DNA from: a virus | Taxonomy: Duplodnaviria > Caudoviricetes | Reading direction: 5' to 3' (one strand) | Length of the DNA: 33,938 nt | IMG/VR virus record: IMGVR_UViG_3300025655_000154 | Coordinates: 1-33,938 of that record | Shown: positions 17,192-33,938 of the stretch, piece by piece | Layout: each line of letters begins with the position of its first letter | How positions within the stretch are numbered: position 1 is the first letter of the stretch | Notes under the pieces: generated by a model | Databases searched by the model: none | What the model was told of the DNA's origin: nothing | Seen by the model: only the letters and a program-made list of their open reading frames with translations | Program-made: the position numbers and the translations under genes

Positions 17192-18031
17192 ATGCCAAGT
17201 ATAAGAAAAAAATTAACAGCTGAACAAAACCCTAACGATTGTAAAAATACAAGAATGGATATTGCTCATGCTGGAGTGTTCGCTAACTTTAGACCTGATG
17301 AAATAGCTCATATTTCTAGGTTTGAAAAAATAGCTTCATTTCTAATAGATGAATCTAAACGTCAAGGTAGACCGCTAGATACTTTAGAGATAGGTTGCGG
17401 ACAGTTGTGGGTGCTACGAACTTTATATAAGTCTTTTGTAGTTAAGAAATCTGATGTAGTTTCATCTTATTATGGTTACGATATCGACCCTGCCTCATTT
17501 GAAGAAATCAAATTTTGGGCAGGAGAAGGTGGTCATGTAAACGATACTACTTGGATTAAAAACTTTAACGCTACTTTAGAATTAAAAGACGTTAGTGTAG
17601 ATCCGACATTACCCCATAATAGCGAAACTATAGACGTAGCTTGGTCTACCGAAGTTATCGAGCATATGCCAAGAGAAGCTGTAGAGCCTTGGATTGCCGA
17701 GTTAAGTCGTGTGGTAAAAAGTGGTGGAACAGTATTTATCTCAACACCTAACCACGATGGCTCTAACGATAAACTTCCTGAAGACCATATCTACGAGTGG
17801 GGTTTCGAGGAACTAAAAGGGTTGCTTACTAGATACTTTAAACTTGAATCTGTAGTAGGTGTATTTACTCAAACTAAAAAGTTCCAGAAATCTCAAGACG
17901 CTAAACAAATATGGACTCCTGAACAGTTAGACATGTTGAAAGAAAGATATGGAAGACAGTTCTTAAGAGTTGTATTAGCGACTTTTTATCCAGAGACTTC
18001 TAACAACTGTTTTTGGAGATTAACTAAGTAA
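17192..18031 (+). CDS. Class I SAM-dependent methyltransferase
   Basis: Motif I LEIGCG, acidic GYDID, STEVIEHM, KSGGTVFISTPN; lacks the DPPY/PC motifs of DNA methyltransferases. Confidence 0.85.
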   Translation: MPSIRKKLTAEQNPNDCKNTRMDIAHAGVFANFRPDEIAHISRFEKIASFLIDESKRQGRPLDTLEIGCGQLWVLRTLYKSFVVKKSDVVSSYYGYDIDPASFEEIKFWAGEGGHVNDTTWIKNFNATLELKDVSVDPTLPHNSETIDVAWSTEVIEHMPREAVEPWIAELSRVVKSGGTVFISTPNHDGSNDKLPEDHIYEWGFEELKGLLTRYFKLESVVGVFTQTKKFQKSQDAKQIWTPEQLDMLKERYGRQFLRVVLATFYPETSNNCFWRLTK

Positions 18032-18900
18032 TGTTCATAGAGGAAGAACTAGATAGATATATCTATTGGATAGAGGAAAGAGAGAGGATCAGGACTAAAA
18101 AAGAAGAAGAAGGTCTTGATCCTCCTTGGACTGACGACAAGATATTACAGGAGTATAAGTTCTGTCAAGTCTTTAGGGATGACGATAGAACTAGTCGGTG
18201 GTTTATAGAGCATATGCGTGATCCATTAAGAATGTCTCCTGAAGTATTTATGGCTACTGTTATTTTCCGTTGGTTTAATTTAATCCAAACAGGAGAAACT
18301 ATTCTTAAATATGATTTGCATACTGATTGGGATCCAACGATTGCAGATGTACAAATAAGAAAACAAAACCAATGGATAACAGGTGCTTATGTAATTAAAA
18401 GTCCAGACGGATTAGATAAGTTGCAAGGTATTATCAGGTGTATTAATTACATGTGGTATAGAAAAGATGAAATACTAGAAGAAGTTTACAACCGCATGGA
18501 TTCTATGCAAAAGATGTGGGAGTATTTACGAGGTTTTCCATTTCAAGGTCCATTTATGGCTTATGAAATAGTAACTGATTTAAGTTTTACTATGTTTTTA
18601 AAAGACGCTACTGATAGGTTGACTTGGGCTAATGCAGGTCCAGGAGCAATGAGAGGTCTAAACAGACTGACAGGTAGACCATTAGATTTTAAAAAGAAGT
18701 CAAACGATTGGGTTGGAGAAATGAACGAACTTTACGAAATATGTAAGTTGAGATTATCTCCTAGTATATTAAAAAGTAACAGACATGCCTTTGAGTTACG
18801 AGAAATAGAAGGTGGTCTTTGTGAGTTCGATAAGTATTCTAGGATACTAAAAGGAGAAGGAAGAACAAGGAGTAAGTATGTACACAATAAAAGCGTATAA
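18031..18900 (+). CDS. aGPT-Pplase1 / 5-hmdU DNA kinase helical-domain family protein (thymidine hypermodification transferase)
   Basis: PPWTDDKILQEYKFCQVFRDDDRTS, FRWFN, GPFMAYEIVTDL, GPGAMRGL and LCEFDKY match this HhH-glycosylase-fold family as recalled. Confidence 0.8.
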   Translation: MFIEEELDRYIYWIEERERIRTKKEEEGLDPPWTDDKILQEYKFCQVFRDDDRTSRWFIEHMRDPLRMSPEVFMATVIFRWFNLIQTGETILKYDLHTDWDPTIADVQIRKQNQWITGAYVIKSPDGLDKLQGIIRCINYMWYRKDEILEEVYNRMDSMQKMWEYLRGFPFQGPFMAYEIVTDLSFTMFLKDATDRLTWANAGPGAMRGLNRLTGRPLDFKKKSNDWVGEMNELYEICKLRLSPSILKSNRHAFELREIEGGLCEFDKYSRILKGEGRTRSKYVHNKSV

Positions 18901-19876
18901 CGTAAACGATGCTTTTTACAAAGGTTTAGATCTTTTTGGCTCTAACATTAACTATAGAGAATATGAAAGCAGAAACGGTAGAGTGTGGGAACTAAAAGAC
19001 CCAATCACTATTAAATACATTAATCCACACCATAGAGTTTTATTTGATAAATGGAGAGATTGTAATCCTTTTTTCCATTTAGCTGAAGGCTTATGGATGT
19101 TAGCAGGTCGAGGAGATTTAGCTTCTATGGAGCATTACGTTCCTAGAATGTCTGAGTTTTCAGACGATGGAAAAAGTTTATGGGGTGCTTACGGTTATAG
19201 ATGGAGATGGATGTTTGGCACTGATCAACTAAAAACTATTATTAAGATGCTACAAAGAAATCCTGATGATAGACGTTGTGTATTACAGATGTGGGGTGCT
19301 GAACAAGACCTAAACCATTTAGACGGTAAAGGAAAAGACGTGCCTTGTAATACTCAAATTTATTTTAAGATTAGAGACGGTGCTTTACGTATGACCGTAA
19401 CTAATAGGTCTAATGATTTAATATGGGGTTGTTTCGGTGCTAACATGGTTCACTTCAGTATGCTTCATGAATACATGGCAAGTATGATCGGAGTAAAGCT
19501 TGGTGAATATTATCACTTTACTGACAACTTACATATCTATGTAGACTATCCAATATGGAGAGATAAAGTTTCTCAAATAGACACAGAGGTAGGTTTATAC
19601 TGTTATAGAAATGATGACGCTTACCCTGCAAATTTAGTTCCTTTGGTGCTTGAGCCTAGTACCTTTGACCAAGAAGTTAAAGATGTATTAGATCGTGTAG
19701 AAAAAGATAAAGGTTATTATCAAAATCCTTTTCTAGAGTATACAGCAATTCCTGTTATAAATGCTTGGGATCTTTGGAAGAAAGGAGACCTTAATTCAGC
19801 TAAAGATGTTGTTGAAAGCATCGAAGCACAGGATTGGAGGACAGCTTGTTTAAATTATTTACAGAGGAGAAGTTAA
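18878..19876 (+). CDS. Thymidylate synthase homologue, probably dUMP hydroxymethylase
   Basis: GAYGYR, DDRR, catalytic PC (DVPCN), RSNDLIWGCFGAN with the dUMP-selecting Asn, DNLHIY; adjacent to the aGPT-Pplase gene. Confidence 0.85.
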   Translation: MYTIKAYNVNDAFYKGLDLFGSNINYREYESRNGRVWELKDPITIKYINPHHRVLFDKWRDCNPFFHLAEGLWMLAGRGDLASMEHYVPRMSEFSDDGKSLWGAYGYRWRWMFGTDQLKTIIKMLQRNPDDRRCVLQMWGAEQDLNHLDGKGKDVPCNTQIYFKIRDGALRMTVTNRSNDLIWGCFGANMVHFSMLHEYMASMIGVKLGEYYHFTDNLHIYVDYPIWRDKVSQIDTEVGLYCYRNDDAYPANLVPLVLEPSTFDQEVKDVLDRVEKDKGYYQNPFLEYTAIPVINAWDLWKKGDLNSAKDVVESIEAQDWRTACLNYLQRRS

Positions 19877-25397: not shown

Positions 25398-25784
25398 ATG
25401 GCAACGTTCCCAGATGATTACGATCCGACTGAGTTCGATAGAATGCAGGACGATGAAGAAAACGCTAGGCGTCCAAAGCTATCTGATTACGAGATAGAAA
25501 AACGTGGACCAACGATATCGGTCAAACTACACGGTGAATATATTTTACCTGCAGTTGCCGAGAACGTTGAACTCATAACTAACCTAGTTCAAAAGCTCAC
25601 TAAGGTTAGAACTATCTATATAGATGGAAAGATGTATAAGCGTATAGATAACGACCCTGTAATAGACCCAGAAGTCTTTATAAGCGTCGATAAGGTTTAC
25701 CTTAACGATAAGCTAGAGGTTAATAAAAATACACCTATACAGGACGCTATAGAAAGTATTTTGTTAGGTGATAAAAGTGCTTGA
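25398..25784 (+). CDS. Hypothetical protein
   Basis: ATG 25398 follows the consensus RBS (ORF track start 25371 lies upstream of it). Confidence 0.75.
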   Translation: MATFPDDYDPTEFDRMQDDEENARRPKLSDYEIEKRGPTISVKLHGEYILPAVAENVELITNLVQKLTKVRTIYIDGKMYKRIDNDPVIDPEVFISVDKVYLNDKLEVNKNTPIQDAIESILLGDKSA

Positions 25785-25813
25785 CTATTTTGTTGTTTTA
25801 TGTATGATAAAAT
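25781..25813 (+). promoter_or_regulatory. Putative sigma70 promoter of a small RNA
   Basis: TTGACT (25781-25786), 16 nt, TATGAT (25803-25808); alternative extended -10 TGaTAAAAT (25805-25813). Confidence 0.55.
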
Positions 25814-25814
25814 G

Positions 25815-25881
25815 ATCATTCTAACCTTATCTTCCTCTCGTAAGAATGTGTTAAAGCCCTGTCACTTGATGGGGCTTTTTT
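25815..25881 (+). ncRNA. Putative ~65-nt trans-acting antisense sRNA
   Basis: Promoter, then hairpin CATTCT/AGAATG with a C/U-rich loop, then an intrinsic terminator; no ORF; complementary to the RBS/start at 30486-30505. Confidence 0.65.
25853..25881 (+). terminator. Rho-independent terminator
   Basis: AAAGCCCTGTC-ACTT-GATGGGGCTTT followed by a T run. Confidence 0.8.
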
Positions 25882-25897
25882 GTTATATGATAGGGTT

Positions 25898-26212
25898 ATG
25901 AAAAGTTGTTTGATCTGTTTTAAAGAAATATCGAAAGGTGAATTTTGCAGCGATGAATGTAGAGCTAAACAGTATAAACACACTGGTTCAACTTACGGTC
26001 AAGGAGGAGATCCAGAAACTTATTCAGCTTATGCTTGTTCTTACGATGAATACCCAGTCGATCAAGGTATTTTACAATTAGCAGAAGCTAATGAGTCAGC
26101 CTTTAAATGGAATCAAGAAGCTTTAATGAGGGTGGGTTCATCCTCTAGAGGTAAAGAAAGGTTTGGAAAACAGAAAAAACCTAGAAAAAATACATTAAAT
26201 AGTTTTTCGTAA
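25898..26212 (+). CDS. Small protein with N-terminal CxxC...FCSxxC Zn finger
   Basis: CLICFKEISKGEFCSDEC; no clear SD, possibly leaderless (TATGAT ends 6 nt before ATG). Confidence 0.6.
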   Translation: MKSCLICFKEISKGEFCSDECRAKQYKHTGSTYGQGGDPETYSAYACSYDEYPVDQGILQLAEANESAFKWNQEALMRVGSSSRGKERFGKQKKPRKNTLNSFS

Positions 26213-26214
26213 AT

Positions 26215-26246
26215 CGCTTTACTTTCGGTTAAATGGGCTTTACTAT
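26215..26246 (+). promoter_or_regulatory. Repeated phage promoter
   Basis: CGC-TTTACT-TT, 17 nt, TACTAT; ATAGGAGAAA RBS follows. Confidence 0.8.
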
Positions 26247-26278
26247 TTATATAGTTAATAATTTTTATAGGAGAAATT

Positions 26279-26476
26279 ATGAAAGCAGAATGTAGAATTT
26301 GTTCAGAGCCAGTTGACGAAGGTCGCTGGGCTCTAGGTAGAAATACCTGTTTAGAATGTGGTGAGATACAAGCTAGAGAGCTTGCCACCAAAAGACGTAT
26401 GCAGATTGCTCCGATGTATAACAAAGGTGCATATCAGTATATAACTGAAAACGATCTACTACATATTGGTAGATAA
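26279..26476 (+). CDS. DksA/TraR-like C4 Zn-finger microprotein
   Basis: CRICSEPVDEGRWALGRNTCLEC plus APMYNKGAYQYI tail; lacks the DksA acidic coiled coil. Confidence 0.65.
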   Translation: MKAECRICSEPVDEGRWALGRNTCLECGEIQARELATKRRMQIAPMYNKGAYQYITENDLLHIGR

Positions 26477-26477
26477 A

Positions 26478-26941
26478 TTTTTGTGTGCGAGGGGTGAAGG
26501 TGAAATTAGCTGTTACTGAGCCTTCCACTTGGTGCTAACGAGATTCACGAGGTTAGTTAAATGAGACTTGTTAAACACTCAAGCCAAGCGATACTCCAAC
26601 AGCCCACACGAAAACGTAGTTAGGAAAGAGCCTTGTAAAAGCCTTTGAAAAATAAGGTTAGGATAAAAGTAAATGAGAACTACACCTTCATGCACTAACT
26701 ACAAATGTAAGGTGTCCTGTTAAGCGATTAGTACAGGAATGGACTTAAATAGCTTCCTGTTGGATGGGTTTATAAGCATCCTATAAACATTGCCTTACAC
26801 CCTAGTATAGCCAGTGATTGGTCGTACAACAATCCGTCACTGAGTAGCCAACGGATACTGGTTATACTATGTGGTCAACAAATAGTCATTAATTGTTGTT
26901 AAAGATAAATTGAAACAAATGCATACTAAATTTATCGCCAC
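26478..26941 (+). ncRNA. Large multi-domain structured RNA region (unclassified)
   Basis: No ORF in the track; five abutting domains each closed by a helix: 26478-26614, 26616-26702, 26706-26799, 26803-26869, 26871-26941; G-U wobbles favour the + strand. Confidence 0.7.
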
Positions 26942-26960
26942 GCCTTTTTAGAGAAAGTTT

Positions 26961-27134
26961 ATGAAAGAAAATACAGATAAAAAACAGTGTCATAAAGATG
27001 CTCATGACTGGGGTTACAGTTATAATATTGGAGTATTAGGAACATTAGTTTCTATATTTGAATGTGAGAATTGTGGATTACGTATGAATAATCCTGATTC
27101 TACAATTATTAAGGAGAAGAAGAAAAATGTCTGA
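26961..27134 (+). CDS. Small putative Zn-binding protein (57 aa)
   Basis: Read by hand: MKENTDKKQCHKDAHDW...FECENCG...; overlaps next start. Confidence 0.55.
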   Translation: MKENTDKKQCHKDAHDWGYSYNIGVLGTLVSIFECENCGLRMNNPDSTIIKEKKKNV

Positions 27135-27357
27135 TTTTGGACCAAGAGAAGAGTGGACTAACGTGTTCATGGTAAAAGAAAAGAAAAACGAAAAGATGCC
27201 TGATTTTAAATCGAGCACCCCAGTCGTTATTGAGGGTAAAAATTTTGACGTATCTTTATATGCTAGGAACGATAAAAATGGCAATACTTACTACGGATGT
27301 AGGGTTACTCCAGAGTGGAAGCCTGAGCCTAAACAAGAAGATACTGGAGAAATTTAA
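27127..27357 (+). CDS. Small beta-rich protein, DUF736-like (possible ssDNA binder)
   Basis: KKNEKMPDF...DVSLYARNDKNGNTYY pattern with acidic tail; AAGGAG RBS. Confidence 0.55.
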   Translation: MSDFGPREEWTNVFMVKEKKNEKMPDFKSSTPVVIEGKNFDVSLYARNDKNGNTYYGCRVTPEWKPEPKQEDTGEI

Positions 27358-27554
27358 TGGCTGATTACGAAACTAGGGAAAAGTTAGCAAGGCGTAGAGA
27401 AGAACTTGCTGAAGAAGCTAAAGACAATAATCTTGTTTTTGATTATTATTCTAGTTTGATCGAGGACGGTATGCGAAAACAGTTTATATGGCATAAATTT
27501 GAATCAGGTAGAGAAACTAAAGAAACTATTACAACGCCATATAATGAATCCTAA
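27357..27554 (+). CDS. Hypothetical protein
   Basis: GGAG RBS, TAATG overlap. Confidence 0.6.
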   Translation: MADYETREKLARRREELAEEAKDNNLVFDYYSSLIEDGMRKQFIWHKFESGRETKETITTPYNES

Positions 27555-27807
27555 AGAATTTGAGCCTTTTAATATTGACGGTTATCATCGTGCAACAGAC
27601 AATACTCTCGTGCACTGGGAATACAAAGTTAGACCGTTATCTCGAATTTTCGAAAAGAACTACAGACCGCAACTTCACCATATAAAAATATTAGATAATT
27701 TTGATGGGTTGACGGAACGAAAATATGCAAAAGAAATCCTAGAGGAAATATTAGTGAACTCAGGTTTTAAAGAAAAGGAGAAAACTCCAGAGAGAAAGTT
27801 TTGGTAA
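27544..27807 (+). CDS. Hypothetical protein
   Basis: ATG 27544 overlaps the upstream gene end (ORF track uses 27499). Confidence 0.6.
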   Translation: MNPKEFEPFNIDGYHRATDNTLVHWEYKVRPLSRIFEKNYRPQLHHIKILDNFDGLTERKYAKEILEEILVNSGFKEKEKTPERKFW

Positions 27808-27808
27808 C

Positions 27809-27951
27809 TGAGTCAGGAACTCCTATTAATATCGTTGCGAGGGGCAACGTCAAGAAACTATACTTCCTGACTCAAACAAATCGGTAAAAGTTTTTAATCA
27901 TTTTGTTTTCTTTTATCGGTTAATTCATAATCTGTATAGTTTCTACCCCTC
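27809..27951 (+). ncRNA. Putative double-pseudoknot RNA with anti-SD and anti-start-codon loops
   Basis: Perfect 11-bp helices 27809-27819/27864-27874 and 27853-27863/27934-27944; hairpin 27833-27849; 12-bp hairpin 27879-27921; GAGGG(G)/(C)CCCTC pairing. Confidence 0.7.
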
Positions 27952-27957
27952 ACTAAT

Positions 27958-27989
27958 CGCTTTACTTTCTAGTAAATGTAACTTATATT
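27958..27989 (+). promoter_or_regulatory. Repeated phage promoter
   Basis: CGC-TTTACT-TT, 17 nt, TATATT; AGAAAGGAGAAA RBS follows. Confidence 0.8.
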
Positions 27990-28029
27990 ATTTATAGTAA
28001 GTAAACAGCTTTATAGAAAGGAGAAAATT

Positions 28030-28470
28030 ATGAAAGGATTACTTAACGGATACCTTATCGACCCTGTCGAACAAGAAGTTACATGGCGTAGTTTTAGTGA
28101 GTCGAAAATTAGAAACGTTATCGGTTGCGACTTACTCGAATTAGTTTATCTACATGACGAAAATCGCGTGATAGTTCTTGATGAAGAGGGGTTATTAAAA
28201 AACAATCAACGCTACTGGAAATACGGTGATATGAATAACGTCTTGAACAATGCTTTTGCAGGTAAAGGAATTATTTTAGGTTTCGATTTCGACAAAGGTG
28301 AATTTATTGATATTTGTCCAGATTTTCCTGACAAACAAACTGATTCAAACATAATTTTAGAATGTATTGAAAACACTTATACTGAAATTGAAGCTAAAGT
28401 TTCTTTTATTGAAGATGAAAATTACTCGGAAGAACCATTCTTCCAATTTGTTCCTATGGAGAATTTATAA
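28030..28470 (+). CDS. DUF3846-like protein
   Basis: YLIDP...IGCDLLELV...VLDEEGLL...FAGKGIILG pattern. Confidence 0.65.
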   Translation: MKGLLNGYLIDPVEQEVTWRSFSESKIRNVIGCDLLELVYLHDENRVIVLDEEGLLKNNQRYWKYGDMNNVLNNAFAGKGIILGFDFDKGEFIDICPDFPDKQTDSNIILECIENTYTEIEAKVSFIEDENYSEEPFFQFVPMENL

Positions 28471-28829
28471 TGGAAATTAAAAATATGCGAGGTGCATTCG
28501 GCTCAGATAAAATTGCAGACGATGTTATTCAGTGGGCGAGGGATTGTGGTTTGTTGTTACAACCGCAAACAGATCGTCAGTTTCTAAAACTTATCGAAGA
28601 AGTTGGCGAAACGATTAGTGCTTATAATCATCTAGCTCCAGGATCTTCGTTCGACGACAGCAAAGAACTTATCGATGGGTTAGGTGATTGTTTTGTCGTA
28701 TTAATAGTTATATGTGCACAGCTTGGTTGGCATCCGAACTGGGTTATTTCACAGGCTTACAATGAAATTAAAAATCGTAAAGGTCAAATGTTTAATGGTT
28801 ACTTCTTGAAGGAGAACGAAGATGAGTAA
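28470..28829 (+). CDS. MazG-like nucleotide pyrophosphohydrolase
   Basis: QFLKLIEEVGE...IDGLGDCFVVL...AYNEIKNRKG (EExxE...D metal motif). Confidence 0.85.
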   Translation: MEIKNMRGAFGSDKIADDVIQWARDCGLLLQPQTDRQFLKLIEEVGETISAYNHLAPGSSFDDSKELIDGLGDCFVVLIVICAQLGWHPNWVISQAYNEIKNRKGQMFNGYFLKENEDE

Positions 28830-29028
28830 ATATAACTATGCAATAGTGAAAACAATAACAGCATATATAAATGCAGAAGATGATAACGATCTACTCAATC
28901 TATATTCAGAGGGAATAGTAGACGAAGAATTATATGATGCAACAGAAAATGCTGATTACACCTTTTACAGAATAAACAGCAATAATGAAAAGCAAGTGAT
29001 TAACTTTAAGGAGAACGAAGATGATTAA
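28822..29028 (+). CDS. Small acidic hypothetical protein
   Basis: AAGGAG RBS inside the junction repeat. Confidence 0.65.
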   Translation: MSKYNYAIVKTITAYINAEDDNDLLNLYSEGIVDEELYDATENADYTFYRINSNNEKQVINFKENEDD

Positions 29029-29149
29029 AGTAATTATAGAATTAGAATTTGATGATAAGCCGACTGATGCAGATGTTTACAATTATCTGAATGAGTTAAT
29101 GGATAATGATTGTTTGGGATATGAAATCAAGGGGAACGAAGATGATTAA
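29021..29149 (+). CDS. Small acidic hypothetical protein (42 aa)
   Basis: Read by hand: MIKVIIELEFDDKPTDADVYNYLNELMDNDCLGYEIKGNEDD; lies exactly between two junction repeats. Confidence 0.65.
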   Translation: MIKVIIELEFDDKPTDADVYNYLNELMDNDCLGYEIKGNEDD

Positions 29150-29423
29150 AAACATATCGTTTAAAGATAAAGATGAAGCAATGGTATTCTTACGTGAAGC
29201 TTGTAATGGTAGATTAAAGCTCGGTGGAACTGAACACGGAAGCGAACTTTACCAAGTATCACCTGTTGCGATAGTTATCGTTAGGAATGTAGGATTAGTT
29301 ACATTTTTTATTAACGAAAGTTATGAAGATATATGCGAATATCTTGTAAGTTTCAATATAGCTGTAGATGAATTATTAGATGAAAGAGGAATTTATTACC
29401 TTAAGGAGGAAACAGATGTCTGA
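29142..29423 (+). CDS. Hypothetical protein
   Basis: ATG 29142 in the junction repeat (ORF track start 29106). Confidence 0.65.
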   Translation: MIKNISFKDKDEAMVFLREACNGRLKLGGTEHGSELYQVSPVAIVIVRNVGLVTFFINESYEDICEYLVSFNIAVDELLDERGIYYLKEETDV

Positions 29424-29757
29424 ATATAAAAACATAGGTTTACATGAAGTTTTATTTGCAAAATATGATGACGATGGAAACGCAGAAGAATGGGGGAGTG
29501 GAAAAGTAAAACTTTATACTGCACCTTATCAAGATTTTGAACATTTTTACGATTTTATAACTGAAGACGACTTAGAAGTAGATTCTTCTACCATAGACGC
29601 TTCAGATGCAATGGAAGTTTTATGTAGATTACTTACCCATATGTATGACGAAAATATATTAACGAGAGCTAGTGCTCAACGAGCCAGTCCTGAGTTAAAA
29701 AAGATCTATAACGATGCTTGCGAACTAGCAAATGAATATCAGGGGCTTCATGACTAA
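29416..29757 (+). CDS. Acidic hypothetical protein
   Basis: TAAGGAGG RBS before ATG 29416. Confidence 0.7.
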   Translation: MSEYKNIGLHEVLFAKYDDDGNAEEWGSGKVKLYTAPYQDFEHFYDFITEDDLEVDSSTIDASDAMEVLCRLLTHMYDENILTRASAQRASPELKKIYNDACELANEYQGLHD

Positions 29758-29980
29758 TCAACGATTTATTGGGGCAGTAGGGTATTTACTCGATACCATC
29801 ACCAAATCTGGCAAAGGACAGGAGACAGAGGTGATTATAAAATTAAAATTTAGATTACCTGAAGAAGAAAATCCAACCTTATATGCGAGCACTGTGACTG
29901 AAGCTTTACGTCGATTGCTCGATAGCAAAGAACTTTTTCGAAAGTTAGTAAAACTTGATAAAGGGGAACTAGATGATTGA
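29750..29980 (+). CDS. Hypothetical protein
   Basis: AGGGG before ATG 29750, overlapping the upstream stop. Confidence 0.6.
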   Translation: MTNQRFIGAVGYLLDTITKSGKGQETEVIIKLKFRLPEEENPTLYASTVTEALRRLLDSKELFRKLVKLDKGELDD

Positions 29981-30053
29981 TGTTCCTTACCCTTTATTTA
30001 TCATCGAAACATTAATTGCATTAATACTTTTTTACATTATTTGGAGACTATAA
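29973..30053 (+). CDS. 26-aa single-transmembrane peptide
   Basis: Read by hand: MIDVPYPLFIIETLIALILFYIIWRL; AAGGGG RBS; fills the gap between neighbours. Confidence 0.55.
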   Translation: MIDVPYPLFIIETLIALILFYIIWRL

Positions 30054-30176
30054 ATGTCGTGTGAAGAAAACCAAAGAATATTAGAAGATTTATATCAACA
30101 ATATATTGATAAAGGATATACGCCAGCGGTTGCTGAAGCGTTAGCTAAAAAAGATTTTGAGGATTTATGCCAGTAA
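30054..30176 (+). CDS. Small hypothetical protein (40 aa)
   Basis: Read by hand: MSCEENQRILEDLYQQY...KKDFEDLCQ; GGAG RBS. Confidence 0.6.
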   Translation: MSCEENQRILEDLYQQYIDKGYTPAVAEALAKKDFEDLCQ

Positions 30177-30201
30177 AAACATTAATGGGTTTATCGTTAA
30201 T

Positions 30202-30233
30202 GGCTTTATTTTCTAGTTTATGGTTAGTATTAT
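30202..30233 (+). promoter_or_regulatory. Variant of the repeated phage promoter
   Basis: GGC-TTTATT-TT, 17 nt, TATTAT; AAAGGAGG RBS follows. Confidence 0.65.
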
Positions 30234-30278
30234 TAATACTATAACTACTTTACTTTTCATACAAACAAAGGAGGGAAA

Positions 30279-30515
30279 ATGTCAGTAGAAAGAAATGTAC
30301 AAGTGCCACTAAATAGTATGTGGCAGTTTTTAACCAAAGAAAACTTTGAAGAACAACTCGGTAGAAAGATATCCGAAGCTGTTTGGAATGAGTTCTTGAA
30401 CCGTTGCCATGACGATTGGTCTACACAGGCAGCAGACTTAGCTTACGATATGTTGAGCGAAGAAATTGATGATATTATTTTTGACCTTACGGAGGAAGAT
30501 AATGGAACTTTTTAA
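30279..30515 (+). CDS. Small acidic hypothetical protein
   Basis: AAGGAGG RBS; D/E-rich. Confidence 0.7.
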   Translation: MSVERNVQVPLNSMWQFLTKENFEEQLGRKISEAVWNEFLNRCHDDWSTQAADLAYDMLSEEIDDIIFDLTEEDNGTF

Positions 30516-30801
30516 TATTTATACAGAACGTGATGCGGTGTTTAGCACTGGTTTCACTTTAGTTGCTAGAAACGTGACCTTAGATAATGCTAAAAAGATT
30601 ATCGCCCTTTACGATCAGCTTTGGGATATTGTTGTTGACAAAGGCTCTGAGCACTTAGAAAAAGGTCAAGAAACCGATTATTTGACAGCCGATACAGTTC
30701 TTCGTAGCTGGGAAGGTTGTGATGTTGTTGCGGTTAGTGTTGATAATTTGCGTCGTTATTATTACGATGACGGTGAGTGGGATACACTTAATAATAGTTG
30801 A
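30502..30801 (+). CDS. Hypothetical protein (putative sRNA target)
   Basis: GGAGG RBS before ATG 30502 (ORF track start 30466). Confidence 0.7.
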   Translation: MELFNIYTERDAVFSTGFTLVARNVTLDNAKKIIALYDQLWDIVVDKGSEHLEKGQETDYLTADTVLRSWEGCDVVAVSVDNLRRYYYDDGEWDTLNNS

Positions 30802-30827
30802 TGAGGTCAAGGGTTATGGGTTATAAT
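30798..30827 (+). promoter_or_regulatory. Sigma70-type promoter
   Basis: TTGATG (30798-30803), 18 nt, TATAAT (30822-30827). Confidence 0.6.
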
Positions 30828-30830
30828 AGT

Positions 30831-30944
30831 TTTGGTTGCTCTCCTGCCCTCCTTGTATCAACATCATATCAAATGGAGAGTAGCCAAACGCTCTCTGTGG
30901 AATCGACTCCTATTAGATTATTCATATTCGGTTTCGCAGAGGGC
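30831..30944 (+). ncRNA. Tandem hairpin RNA/leader with anti-SD loops
   Basis: 14-bp stem 30831-30844/30875-30888 (loop has CCCTCCTT) and 17-bp stem 30890-30906/30928-30944 (loop starts CTCCTATTAG); several G-U pairs indicate + strand RNA. Confidence 0.7.
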
Positions 30945-30965
30945 ACTTTTAGAAAGGAGAAATAA

Positions 30966-31229
30966 GTGATTATAGTTATTTACGAAATACGTGACGGTGA
31001 ACACGAATACGAGTCTATCGACTATTTTAGAGATAAAAATATATCCGATTATCGAGAAGGTAAAATTACCGATTTAGATTTATTAAACGAAAAATATGGT
31101 ATAGAAGCCAGTGACCGTGATAATGAAGATAGTAGTTGGTATTGGATGGGTGGTCTTAGAACAGTTCAAGTTTATAGTGTTCAAGAAATTACAGAAGAAG
31201 AATTAGATATCGTTTCGAGGTTTATATGA
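30966..31229 (+). CDS. Acidic hypothetical protein
   Basis: AGAAAGGAGAAA RBS, GTG start. Confidence 0.7.
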   Translation: MIIVIYEIRDGEHEYESIDYFRDKNISDYREGKITDLDLLNEKYGIEASDRDNEDSSWYWMGGLRTVQVYSVQEITEEELDIVSRFI

Positions 31230-31726
31230 ATATATTTGTATTAAACGAAGATCCAATCCAAGCTGCAAAAGACCAATGCGATAAGCATGTAGTTAAAATG
31301 ATATTAGAAACAGCTCAGATGTTATCGACTACTCAGCGTTGGTTTTACGAAGACGATTATTGTAATAGAGTTGGTTATTATAAGATTGCTCATATTAACC
31401 ACCCTTGTACGATTTGGGCTAGGACAGATGCTAGTAATTACCAATGGTTATACGAACATTTTGTAGCGTTATGTGATGAATATACGAAACGCTATGGCAA
31501 AGTCCATTTAACCGATACTAAGTTGCGAGATAAGCTATCTTACATTCCTGGAGATATGCCAAGTTCTTATCCAAATAAGACAACACCATTTGCCCAAGCT
31601 ATGCCTGACGAATATAAAGATCCAACCGATGCAGTTAAAGCATATCGGAACTATTACATTGGCGAGAAGTCAGGGTTTGCTAAATGGGAGTATACCGACC
31701 CTCCTGAATGGTTCGTTGCCAGTTGA
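31226..31726 (+). CDS. Pyrimidine-dimer DNA glycosylase/endonuclease V-like family protein
   Basis: MNIFVL...CDKHVVKMILETAQMLST, HINHPCTIWAR, EYTKRYGKVH, FAQAMPDEYK, AYRNYY. Confidence 0.75.
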   Translation: MNIFVLNEDPIQAAKDQCDKHVVKMILETAQMLSTTQRWFYEDDYCNRVGYYKIAHINHPCTIWARTDASNYQWLYEHFVALCDEYTKRYGKVHLTDTKLRDKLSYIPGDMPSSYPNKTTPFAQAMPDEYKDPTDAVKAYRNYYIGEKSGFAKWEYTDPPEWFVAS

Positions 31727-31730
31727 TCTG

Positions 31731-31753
31731 ACCCCTCATAAGAGGGGTTTTTT
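31731..31753 (+). terminator. Rho-independent terminator
   Basis: ACCCCTC-ATAA-GAGGGGT followed by a T run. Confidence 0.85.
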
Positions 31754-31779
31754 GTGCTTGGTTAGCTCTCCAGTCTATT

Positions 31780-32050
31780 AATTTATTAGTCTTATATAGT
31801 TATTTCTAAAATATTTTATTTTTTAAAAAAAATTTCTAAAATGGCTAATATCACTAATAAAGTAATAGAATCGTCGTCAAAGTCTCGTGGTTAAAGGTTT
31901 TTTCGGTCTATTACTTTTTTTAAAATCTATTAGATTTTAACCAACCTATTACTTTTTTAGAGTTGTGGGCAGGTGGATGCGGCACAGTATATAATTCAGA
32001 AAGGAAAAGTTTTTTATTTTTTCTTTTTTAATTTAAAATTAGAGAAATAT
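31780..32050. other. AT-rich non-coding region with inverted/direct repeats (candidate replication origin)
   Basis: CTATTACTTTTTT twice, inverted AAAGTAATAGA, 21-bp palindrome 31920-31940, A/T tracts on both sides. Confidence 0.5.
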
Positions 32051-32075
32051 ATCGACGCAACAGGGGTTTAAGCCT

Positions 32076-32621
32076 ATGAAAGAATTAGAGTACGTAAGAT
32101 TAGAACCAACAGAAGATGGTAAAGGTATGGTAGATCCAGACGGTAAGATCTGGCAACCGTTAAACAGTAAACAAAAACGATTCGTTAGCGAGTATATAAA
32201 AGGCGAAAGTGCTACACAAGCGGCTATAAAAGCAGGCTATACCAAGAATCGTAACGCAGCCAAACGACAGGGCAGTGTGTTACTAAATCACAACCCAGTA
32301 GTCCGAAACTACCTTATAGACCAATCAATAAAGTTGCAAGAGAGGTCTAGGGTAGATATAGACTCTCATCTTTCAGCTCTTTACGATTTAAGAGAAGAAG
32401 CCAAAGACCAAGGACAAATATCAGCGGCTATAACAGCCGAAGTCCATCGAGGGAAGGCTGGTGGACTGTATGTCGACCGACGAGAGATCATCCAACAACA
32501 GATCCAATCCATGCCAAAGGAAGAAATTATCCAACGCCTTGAACAATTAATCCAAGCCAACTTCCCAAAAATCATAGAAGCCCAAGTCGTCCAACCAACC
32601 AACCAAACCAAAGACCAATAA
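32076..32621 (+). CDS. terS: Terminase small subunit
   Basis: LNSKQKRFVSEYI...ATQAAIKAGY...GSVLL..P.V HTH typical of TerS; AAITAEVHRGKAGGLY. Confidence 0.85.
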   Translation: MKELEYVRLEPTEDGKGMVDPDGKIWQPLNSKQKRFVSEYIKGESATQAAIKAGYTKNRNAAKRQGSVLLNHNPVVRNYLIDQSIKLQERSRVDIDSHLSALYDLREEAKDQGQISAAITAEVHRGKAGGLYVDRREIIQQQIQSMPKEEIIQRLEQLIQANFPKIIEAQVVQPTNQTKDQ

Positions 32622-32684
32622 CCATCGTCCCTCGTCCTTCGTCCTTGGTCAATCGATCGTCTATCGTGGTTCGTGGTTCGTCGC
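32591..32684 (+). repeat. CCAA tract plus TCGTnnn heptamer array, block 1
   Basis: (CCAA)n then TCGTCCC TCGTCCT TCGTCCT ... TCGTCTA TCGTGGT TCGTGGT TCGTCGC. Confidence 0.75.
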
Positions 32685-32736
32685 AAACTAGGTGACTAAG
32701 CGATGAAAGAGGGAAGATAAATTAGATAAAATAGTT

Positions 32737-32766
32737 CTTTACTTTTATTATTAAATCGGCAACAAT
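32737..32766 (+). promoter_or_regulatory. Repeated phage promoter (variant)
   Basis: C-TTTACT-TT, 17 nt, AACAAT; 5' hairpin GTTAATTAAA/TTTAATTAAC; AGAAAGGAGAAA RBS. Confidence 0.6.
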
Positions 32767-32825
32767 ATATATAGTTAATTAAATGGTTTAATTAACACTA
32801 ACAAGTTTTAGAAAGGAGAAAGATT

Positions 32826-33107
32826 ATGAAAAAACTTGATATGCCAAACGTGACTGTTAGATCTAGACAAGGTGTGACAGCATACAAACTAACTTGCGAG
32901 TCTATTCCAAAGATCGCACCACAGGCTCAGCTGATCCTCTGGGCGGTTAGCGAGTGTGCTGACAAGAATGGTCTAGCGACAGTTGAGAACATTGCCGAGT
33001 TCCTAAAAGGTGTCGACAATTTCAAAACTGTCCAGCCAGTCATTAGGGTAATTAGACATTACCAAAAAGATATGGCTGATCGAGGTCTGATAGAGCTCGT
33101 AGCCTAA
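32826..33107 (+). CDS. Winged-helix-like protein, paralogue 2
   Basis: PQAQLIL...KTVQPVIRVIRHYQKDMADRGLIELV. Confidence 0.7.
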   Translation: MKKLDMPNVTVRSRQGVTAYKLTCESIPKIAPQAQLILWAVSECADKNGLATVENIAEFLKGVDNFKTVQPVIRVIRHYQKDMADRGLIELVA

Positions 33108-33110
33108 TCC

Positions 33111-33139
33111 AAAGTGCCCACTTCGGTGGGCATTTTTTT
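33111..33139 (+). terminator. Rho-independent terminator
   Basis: GTGCCCAC-TTCG-GTGGGCAT (cUUCGg tetraloop) plus T run. Confidence 0.9.
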
Positions 33140-33140
33140 A

Positions 33141-33293
33141 CCCAACCCAATCACCAATCAACCAATCGCCCAATCCAACCAATCAACCAATCCAATTAAC
33201 CAATTCCCAATTCCCACATTCCACCTTCCATGATCACTCGTCTCTCGTCGTTCGTGCCTGATAGTTCGTCGCTGATGGTTCGTGGTTCGTCGC
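33141..33293 (+). repeat. CCAAT tract plus TCGT array, block 2
   Basis: Degenerate CCAATC(A) units then TCGT units; ends in the same 18-mer TGGTTCGTGGTTCGTCGC as block 1. Confidence 0.75.
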
Positions 33294-33334
33294 TTTTTAT
33301 AGGTGATAAAAAAGATTAATAAAGATTAATAAAC

Positions 33335-33368
33335 CGCTTTACTTTTAAAATAATTCAGGCAATATAAT
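33335..33368 (+). promoter_or_regulatory. Repeated phage promoter
   Basis: CGC-TTTACT-TT; TATAAT at 33363-33368 (19-nt spacer); ATAGGAGAAA RBS. Confidence 0.65.
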
Positions 33369-33407
33369 AGGTATATTAACTAACTCAATAACTAATAGGA
33401 GAAAATT

Positions 33408-33713
33408 ATGAGTAAGAAAGTAAACTTAACCTTTAAAGCTACTAAGTCCGTTCGCAAGGGCAATCAGGTTTCCGCTTATACGCTTAACCCTGATAACTTA
33501 GGCGAGGCTAATAAAATGGCTGGGCAAGCTCAAGCTATAGTAGCTACGCTAGTAGAACTAGCTAACGAAACAGGTAGCTTAACTATTACTAGGGAAAAGC
33601 TACTTGATAGCCTTAACGCTACTAACGTTTTAGATAGCGTACAACCTACAGGTAAAGTCGTTAGCCATTACCATAAGAAACTACAATCGTATGGCGTATT
33701 AGAACTAATCTAA
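33408..33713 (+). CDS. Winged-helix-like protein, paralogue 3
   Basis: GQAQAIV...DSVQPTGKVVSHYHKKLQSYGVLELI. Confidence 0.7.
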   Translation: MSKKVNLTFKATKSVRKGNQVSAYTLNPDNLGEANKMAGQAQAIVATLVELANETGSLTITREKLLDSLNATNVLDSVQPTGKVVSHYHKKLQSYGVLELI

Positions 33714-33756: not shown

Positions 33757-33811
33757 ATGCCCTTCGAAAAGGTTCATACCAACCTACCAATTATAAATAA
33801 TATATATAATA

Positions 33812-33871
33812 CCCCCCACCCCCCATAAGCAGCAGTTATGGTGCCCCCCCACCCACCCTCCCTTAATCCCC
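33812..33871 (-). other. G-quadruplex-forming motif on the minus strand
   Basis: 33844-33862 reads GGGAGGGTGGGTGGGGGGG on the minus strand; further G6-T-G6 at 33812-33824. Confidence 0.6.
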
Positions 33872-33938
33872 TCAAACAATCCTAGTAACTTTACGTTTGA
33901 AAATTTGTCGCATATGTATTTTTCAAATACCCCTTACT

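Follow-up and report, generated by a model that had tools for sequence, protein, structure and literature searches.

Small RNAs (sRNAs) of the AbcR type repress translation through loops with an anti-Shine-Dalgarno (anti-SD) word. The cuckoo sRNAs of alphaproteobacteria carry such a word in hairpin loops on freely varying stems; they consist of two to four hairpins, each loop with the same 9-nucleotide (nt) motif CCUCCUCCC (PMC4615179; this and the other sources cited here are drawn on in excerpt). In phages P1 and P7, the C4 RNA is a structured RNA with three stem-loops and a' and b' loops, processed from a longer transcript by RNase P, and two single-stranded parts of it pair with the phage's own mRNA, one of them at the ribosome-binding site (RBS) (PMC5320573). 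VpdS, PreS and DicF are trans-acting phage sRNAs, of which DicF blocks translation by base pairing; they belong to temperate phages or prophages, are linked to Hfq and are largely directed at host mRNAs or sRNAs (PMC12197685). In icaR, an anti-SD word at the transcript 3' end can mask the RBS of its own message (PMC3868564). Here we analyzed the viral record IMGVR_UViG_3300025655_000154, a stretch of 33,938 nt referred to as the window, in which three intergenic loci, R1, R2 and R3, are predicted to form RNAs that expose strands complementary to SD sequences and start codons. We favor, with a probability of roughly 0.55, the reading that R1-R3 are modular base-pairing RNAs that lower the translation of certain early genes of the phage itself, their targets turning over fast. 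An earlier note on this DNA had proposed a circuit of several antisense RNAs that shuts off early or toxic genes, and had held most phage antisense RNAs to be encoded in cis; the latter statement overlooks the trans-acting VpdS, PreS and DicF (PMC12197685) and the two-loop C4 RNA (PMC5320573), as far as these excerpts describe them.

The likeness to C4, on its excerpted description, lies in two separate single-stranded parts, one of them at the RBS, and is predicted here only for R3 hairpin 2 and gene 33408, the 16 other arm sets not reaching significance. Unlike C4, R1-R3 have no Rfam C4 match and do not fold into its three stem-loops; their arms flank one helix end and would read SD and start codon, and several unrelated scaffolds coexist. 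In contrast to P1 and P7, no integrase or repressor gene is present in the window, and the phage is probably lytic. Here, as in the cuckoo sRNAs, an anti-SD loop is carried by stems whose sequence varies, but none of the R1-R3 loops bears the motif CCUCCUCCC of the cited account, and these phage-encoded loops differ from one another and add anti-AUG arms and pseudoknots. Compared by description only, VpdS, PreS and DicF share with R1-R3 that phage-encoded RNAs act away from their own locus, which is a prediction here; in the excerpted review they are temperate, Hfq-linked and host-directed, whereas the predicted targets here are own early genes. Unlike in icaR, the partners of R1 and R3 lie in other transcription units, and a target at the start of the same message was not found for R1, the R2 arms or R3 of the window; it ranks best only in the relatives L005 and L124b. 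The relatives (L plus a number) were taken from IMG/VR and metagenomes; some six of them are distinct phages that are closely related, and a broad clade was obtained in addition. R1, R2 and R3 gave no match at gathering score to the covariance models of Rfam 15, which include C4, cuckoo/alpha-r14, AbcR/alpha-r15 and ribozymes; the single Rfam match in the window, to rsmX (E 0.5), lies outside the loci and is attributable to chance, and eight relatives gave none. R1-R3 also showed no DNA similarity in cultured relatives among 50,697 phage records. A literature search found no description of such combined RNAs, with most subscription journals and supplements, which may hold motif catalogues, outside its scope.

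All three loci fold better than 200 dinucleotide shuffles each (z-scores of -3.67 for R1, -4.50 for R2 and -6.51 for R3; 0/200 equally stable shuffles in every case). R1 and its partner comprise the following features.

25781..25808, plus strand: sigma70-like promoter of R1 (-35 at 25781-86, -10 at 25803-08), kept in 7 related loci
25815..25884, plus strand: R1, a predicted stand-alone sRNA of ~70 nt, from its fold and orthologues
25817-25848, plus strand: R1 hairpin, with the anti-SD loop at 25826-25839
about 25853-25884, plus strand: R1 intrinsic terminator, after the hairpin
30486..30505, plus strand: SD and start of gene 30502 (99 amino acids (aa), no assigned function), the R1 partner

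The R1 loop can form 17 pairs with gene 30502, with one bulge, reaching onto the start codon. The plain duplex test compared each segment with 67 start regions of its own genome, with 1947 foreign ones and with 150 shuffles in which the core word was fixed. In it, this duplex reached -27.4 kcal/mol, compared with -18.7 for the runner-up among own genes; 0/1947 foreign regions and 0/150 shuffles were as good. R1 has its own promoter and terminator in the sequence, as is characteristic of trans-encoded base-pairing sRNAs, and it would have to act in trans because terminators lie between it and 30502. The sigma70-like promoter scan is itself weak (49 sites versus 45.5 in shuffles), and the real support for the R1 promoter is its conservation in relatives. 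R1 orthologues at 7 loci show two loop variants and retain promoter, anti-SD loop and terminator while the stem is altered, a sequence pattern which supports selection keeping the loops. A close strain (RNA library X4) differs inside R1 by a G-to-T change at 25840, the position that would pair with 30490, and inside the R2 P3 loop, described below, by losses of one base each at 27900 and 27905. A reading on the minus strand, in the manner of a CsrA sponge, was rejected: both the promoter and the terminator that R1 conserves are oriented along the plus strand, and the two-arm layout described below is missing on the minus strand.

R2, newly recognized here as a predicted double pseudoknot, stands at the 3' end of the 26279-27807 unit and abuts the next promoter, as a transcript tail with no terminator.

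27809..27951, plus strand: R2, predicted double pseudoknot, from its fold and its recurrence in relatives with unrelated sequence
27809-19/27864-74, plus strand: P1, predicted helix
27833-38/27844-49, plus strand: P2, predicted helix
27853-63/27934-44, plus strand: PK1, in which the linker 27853-63 is complementary to 27934-44
P2 loop with 27946-51, plus strand: PK2, by complementarity
27879-90/27910-21, plus strand: P3, predicted helix

A structure-only descriptor of this fold, run on 1144 non-coding segments (331 kb), gave 12 distinct matches scoring at least 66. At a score of at least 75, seven lay on the plus strand (the window, L005, L020, L010, L008, L012 and L017), compared with one on the minus strand and one in 40 shuffled rounds. 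L010 and L008 are one base apart and L017 and L020 are 80% alike; otherwise, the R2-type elements share no blastn similarity (seven hand-picked elements), so that their helices appear to have been fully exchanged. L085 also bears the R2 fold, spotted by eye. A scan of 76 held-out loci over their whole length gave 15 rows at 70 or above, of which 4 were members by eye (L216, L217, L218 and L256) and 11 were judged to be chance. In L216 (7995), L217 (7543-7995) and L218 (4489-7995), several promoter-proximal genes have an SD type unlike that of most of the clade, and the anti-SD word of the L216-L218 pseudoknots fits this unusual type by eye.

These folds might instead be transcript-end protectors, processing sites or catalytic RNAs, the anti-SD and anti-AUG words being incidental or protein-binding. 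The pseudoknot scaffold does persist while arms shift or vanish, the R2-type scaffold stands where a terminator would be, and pairing specificity drops once folding is paid for. We nevertheless consider this improbable, given that both words are enriched, in orientation, on the transcribed strand only, that the R1 loop outlasts changes in its stem, and that no invariant core suggestive of catalysis is visible among the seven R2-type elements, which have no Rfam ribozyme match. HDV-like and pistol ribozyme folds were considered and set aside, since the helix order differs from theirs and Rfam gave no match.

R2 exposes two arms and a loop, whose positions and candidate partners are as follows.

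27820..27832, plus strand: R2 anti-SD arm, beginning at the P1/PK1 junction
27922..27933, plus strand: R2 anti-start-codon arm, ending at the P1/PK1 junction; the same arm occurs in L085, L005 and L088
27891..27909, plus strand: R2 P3 loop, U-rich and complementary, as a linear antisense, to a start region repeated at 29021/29142/29973
29008..29030, plus strand: start region of 29021 (42 aa), P3 loop partner
29129..29153, plus strand: start region of 29142 (93 aa), best P3 loop partner, with 24 pairs and one bulge
29955..29985, plus strand: start region of the small open reading frame (ORF) 29973 (26 aa), P3 loop partner

The P3 loop forms with 29142 a duplex of -23.0 kcal/mol, followed by 29021 at -19.1, and was equaled by 1/1947 foreign start regions and 0/150 shuffles. 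At positions that vary among its partners, the U-rich P3 strand can accommodate either A or G. When the folding of both RNAs is paid for, 29142 ranks first of 66 and 29973 and 29021 rank fourth and fifth. Between 28800 and 29160, genes 28822, 29021 and 29142 share a repeat of about 17 bases, comprising SD, spacer and start, that overlaps the end of the preceding gene. The anti-SD arm of R2 alone found no partner beyond chance (60/150 shuffles as good), and the start region of 33408 is top-ranked for the R2 arms without significance. By eye only, the arms of R2-type elements look like the SD type of the lineage that carries them and like the start of that lineage's 33408 orthologue.

R3 lies in the leader of the 30966-31726 unit and has no terminator of its own.

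30798..30827, plus strand: sigma70-like promoter of R3, from the promoter scan only
30831-30944, plus strand: R3, whole locus, from its fold
30834..30885, plus strand: R3 hairpin 1, with a 30-nt loop and an anti-SD word at 30847-30854
30890..30944, plus strand: R3 hairpin 2, the clamp hairpin, with a 17-bp stem and a 21-nt loop at 30907-30927
33392..33415, plus strand: start region of 33408, partner of R3 hairpin 2
33408..33713, plus strand: predicted winged-helix protein (101 aa), paralogue of 32826 and 24469

The loop of R3 hairpin 1 found no partner beyond chance (110/150 shuffles as good). In hairpin 2, the loop opens with an anti-SD arm on the 5' side and closes with an anti-AUG arm on the 3' side; these arms match 33408 on the SD side (33392-33401, 10 pairs) and on the start-codon side (33407-33415, 9 pairs, one of them G-U). 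As a linear duplex, this match is not significant (63/150 shuffles). Scored as two arms, 19/21 loop bases pair at -21.7, the next-best value being -14.4; 0/2272 foreign start regions, 0/40 shuffles and 0/105 other loci match this fit. Because two terminators separate R3 from 33408, hairpin 2 would have to act in trans. A 49-codon ORF at 30816 that runs over R3 was judged spurious from its weak SD and its overlap with two strong stems; no homology search was made for it. The proteins of 30502, 29142 and 33408 have no Pfam or PHROG family, their Atlas matches all lie below 0.9, and Foldseek gave none that was significant; in a structural comparison, 33408 reached a best Z of 7.7 (root-mean-square deviation 2.1 over 68 residues), which reflects a common fold and is functionally uninformative. 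The paralogues 24469, 32826 and 33408, all three predicted to have a winged-helix fold, are each the first gene behind a phage promoter-like motif, and the family is clade-wide.

The earlier note's three RNA loci and five exposed segments are therefore borne out, with a sixth segment, the R2 anti-AUG arm, and two R2 pseudoknot pairings that it had missed. Its three extended partners among own genes likewise stand, as R1-30502, P3-29021/29142/29973 and R3 hairpin 2-33408 all beat foreign or shuffled controls. Its expectation that interaction energies exceed those of shuffles holds for R1 and the P3 loop as linear duplexes and for R3 hairpin 2 under two-arm scoring only, but not for the R2 anti-SD arm or R3 hairpin 1. 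Trans action, which it had inferred for the whole circuit, is consistent with the terminators that split R1 from 30502 and R3 from 33408; for the P3 partners, 1-2 kb downstream of R2 with no listed terminator between, it is not required, and the P3 loop could pair with them within a single read-through transcript, in cis.

This point also speaks for another explanation, a cis role, with transcript tails or leaders folding back to the start region of their own message in the manner described for icaR (PMC3868564, in excerpt), or insulating the next unit from read-through translation. R2 and most of the hairpins with both arms do stand at the 3' end of a unit right before the next promoter with no terminator, and among own matches the best falls on the unit's first gene in L005, on the preceding gene in L124b and on the next gene in L158. 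However, R1 comes with a promoter and a terminator of its own, two terminators stand between R3 and 33408, and R2 of the window ranks its unit's first gene only 7/52 and the next gene 8/52. We therefore regard a general cis role as unlikely.

R2 and R3 hairpin 2 share a layout, newly predicted here and called a clamp, in which an anti-SD and an anti-AUG arm flank one helix end. In R2 of the window and in L085, L005 and L010/L008, the anti-SD arm directly follows the P1 5' strand and the anti-AUG arm ends directly before the PK1 3' strand; as P1 and PK1 abut, both R2 arms meet at one junction. The arms may be likened to the tail of the 16S RNA and the anticodon of the initiator tRNA. Of 914 distinct helices picked on the plus strand by structure only, 8 combine the two words in the clamp layout, compared with 0.75 expected, and 0 have them in mirror order; on the minus strand, the layout is found in 0/890 helices. 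Six clamp stems differ widely yet pair, with changes on both sides in 8/9 consensus pairs of a rough alignment. Most clamp hairpins lie immediately 5' of the following promoter, in many cases where a long non-coding stretch of modular build ends. In the helix scan, the clamp hairpin is absent from the HTVC023P, HTVC027P and 023Pt_psg01 stretches. A pattern scan for the L141-type hairpin returned 11 stretches; among 8 newly fetched ones, 4 were family members and 4 chance matches. At L124:6697-6810 and L097:3833-3950, two clamp-like hairpins stand in tandem right before a promoter, as in R3.

A compact scan (accessible seed, at most one defect) was run over 31 clade phages and 1081 own-genome pairs. 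Its top four pairs were P3-29142, P3-29973, P3-29021 and R1-30502, with top scores of 44, 43, 39 and 35. When the window's intergenic RNA was set against 948 foreign start regions, a score of 36 was reached on 2 and one of 34 on 5.

Under the favored reading, exposed strands complementary to SDs and start codons would block ribosome loading on a subset of own early genes. The RNAs would arise from host-type promoters or as transcript tails, and long stems and pseudoknots would let them outlast mRNAs, giving a delayed negative feedback and not a sharp switch. Since the promoters of R1 and R3 are host-type, a gradual feedback through RNA stability is to be expected instead of a timed shut-off; for the shut-off proposed by the earlier note, as for toxicity of the targets, we find no support. 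Two modes may be distinguished: linear antisense, by which R1 would act on 30502 and the R2 P3 loop on 29021/29142/29973, and the two-arm clamp, by which R3 hairpin 2 and R2 would act on 33408 and, more loosely, on other genes. As the anti-AUG arm ends where the anti-SD arm begins, we infer that an mRNA can pair on both sides while the variable SD-AUG spacer is skipped. Scaffolds would be inherited while arms and targets change quickly, which would leave most relatives with generic arms that bind many SD-led, AUG-purine starts and not one gene.

Several results weigh against this reading. First, the window was picked from many for these very matches, which inflates its p-values by selection, and its lead over relatives in the compact scan is partly of the same origin. 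Across the 31 phages, own pairs show no excess, either at duplex energies of -26 kcal/mol or below (18/1081 own versus 50/3243 foreign) or at compact scores of at least 30 (20/1081 versus 103/6174), and loose duplexes as strong as that of R1 arise by chance across all intergenic RNA. Second, specificity falls when folding is paid for: R1-30502 then ranks 2/65 at -15.5, with 5/700 sampled foreign regions as good, P3-29142 retains only -10.9, with 2/700, and R3 hairpin 2 shows no binding, although pairing within a closed loop lies outside what this model can represent. Third, relatives do not repeat the pairings. The co-variation of loop and target expected by the earlier note fails for R1, whose orthologues have no outstanding own target (foreign regions as good in 12/2334, 34/2359 and 25/2344, two of the three genome sets being fragments grouped by guess) and whose target 30502 has an orthologue in L027 that has no SD. 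The P3 loops of L085, L005 and L012 have no stand-out own target, and the three P3 partners in the window have a repeated start region in common and cannot be counted separately. A significant own target exists for just one of the 17 two-arm sets, that of R3 hairpin 2, with L005 and L124b borderline. Finally, the 8 clamp matches represent 4 sequence families, including the window's own, which defined the pattern; in the 76 held-out loci, the clamp was found in 2/536 helices (0.11 expected), one of a known family and one probably chance. Within the pseudoknot family, L012 has no anti-AUG arm, and in a second subtype (L017, L020, L216-L218 and L256) an anti-SD-like word follows P1 and the anti-AUG arm is missing.

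Much of this would also fit arms that are generic initiation inhibitors directed at host mRNAs or co-infecting related phages, the own matches being a by-product of shared SD usage and of the selection of this window. The arms are nearly invariant across unrelated hairpin scaffolds, own and foreign genes fit equally well in 16/17 arm sets and clade-wide, and modules are swapped among relatives. By eye, sister phages sometimes offer a better fit than the genome that encodes the arms, as L083/L084/L086 do, through the start of their 33408 orthologue, for the arms of L085 R2. An SD-like word precedes only 2/7 virion-module genes of the window, so that late genes would be spared. However, replication genes also have strong SDs and would be struck, and three loops of the window have long compact own matches that foreign start regions almost never reach. 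We consider such generic inhibition possible but doubtful, and retain the dampening of own early genes as the preferred reading.

Metatranscriptome data, which consist of contigs, touch the region upstream of R2 in the same unit.

26512..26931, plus strand (from gene context): long modular non-coding stretch upstream of R2, given as context only

In three metatranscriptomes R1-R3 are uncovered, except for the R1 terminator, which is covered by foreign contigs; this is no proof of absence, as RNAs of small size readily escape such libraries. The contigs do cover 26512-26931, along with coding pieces here and there. Contigs with 0 differences over 26512-26916 and 26512-26931 come from RNA libraries of two studies, and identical or close contigs occur in three RNA libraries; depth in X1 is 23, compared with 2.6-4.1 for nearby identical single-read pieces, though strand and level cannot be read from contigs. 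The surrounding 26478-26960 is a long ORF-free stretch whose modules are shuffled among relatives.

The window has a GC content of 35.6% and covers most of an HTVC023P-type marine phage. Its DNA polymerase has its closest matches, among the 50,697 phage records, in 023Pt_psg01, DSL-LC04, HTVC023P and HTVC027P (47-52% identity). Gene content includes a primase, helicases, a thymidylate synthase and a 5-hydroxymethyldeoxyuridine (5-hmdU) kinase-like gene. Partner genes of this kind are mentioned for uncultivated HTVC023P-type members (PMC9599517, in excerpt). At 17192-19876, the methyltransferase, 5-hmdU kinase-like and thymidylate synthase genes stand consecutively, which suggests DNA base modification. 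A search for the host by the small terminase TerS in GTDB genomes gave no match, and one by the 26279 family gave five distant matches in unrelated taxa. R1-R3 and their partners lie in a variable region, made up of small genes, that runs from DUF932 (23132) to the small terminase (32076), with two further genes beyond it; these genes are labeled early, as a prediction, because of repeated promoter-like motifs and strong SDs. The promoter-like motif, whose core reads CTTTAC and whose second box is AT-rich, occurs at about 24390, 25330, 26210, 27955, 32745 and 33335; a long, nearly invariant SD usually follows it, and it is unlike the TTGAC-type promoter of R1. At 31770-32070, an AT-rich non-coding region with long inverted repeats 5' of the small terminase gene is conserved in relatives and is a possible origin or packaging site. 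Pyrimidine-rich short tandem-like repeats lie between the terminase and winged-helix genes (32590-32680 and 33140-33290), where relatives have different units, and C-rich tracts lie at 33800-33880.

In summary, the trans-acting phage RNAs of the excerpted review (PMC12197685) come from temperate phages of model bacteria, whereas the phage studied here is probably lytic and belongs to a marine group that is abundant. One phage would here carry several modular RNAs directed against ribosome sites, one of them folded in a way that matches none of the Rfam families. A clamp whose two arms pass over the SD-AUG spacer would, if true, represent a compact, programmable means of translation silencing. 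More speculatively, and with considerable doubt on our part, this widespread marine phage group may encode an undescribed class of start-site clamp RNAs, whose hairpin and double-pseudoknot scaffolds would imitate the two RNA contacts of the initiating ribosome and silence SD-led messages broadly, whether own early, host or rival phage, while SD-poor virion genes escape. Swapped as cassettes, such RNAs would amount to an RNA-only switch for translational takeover.

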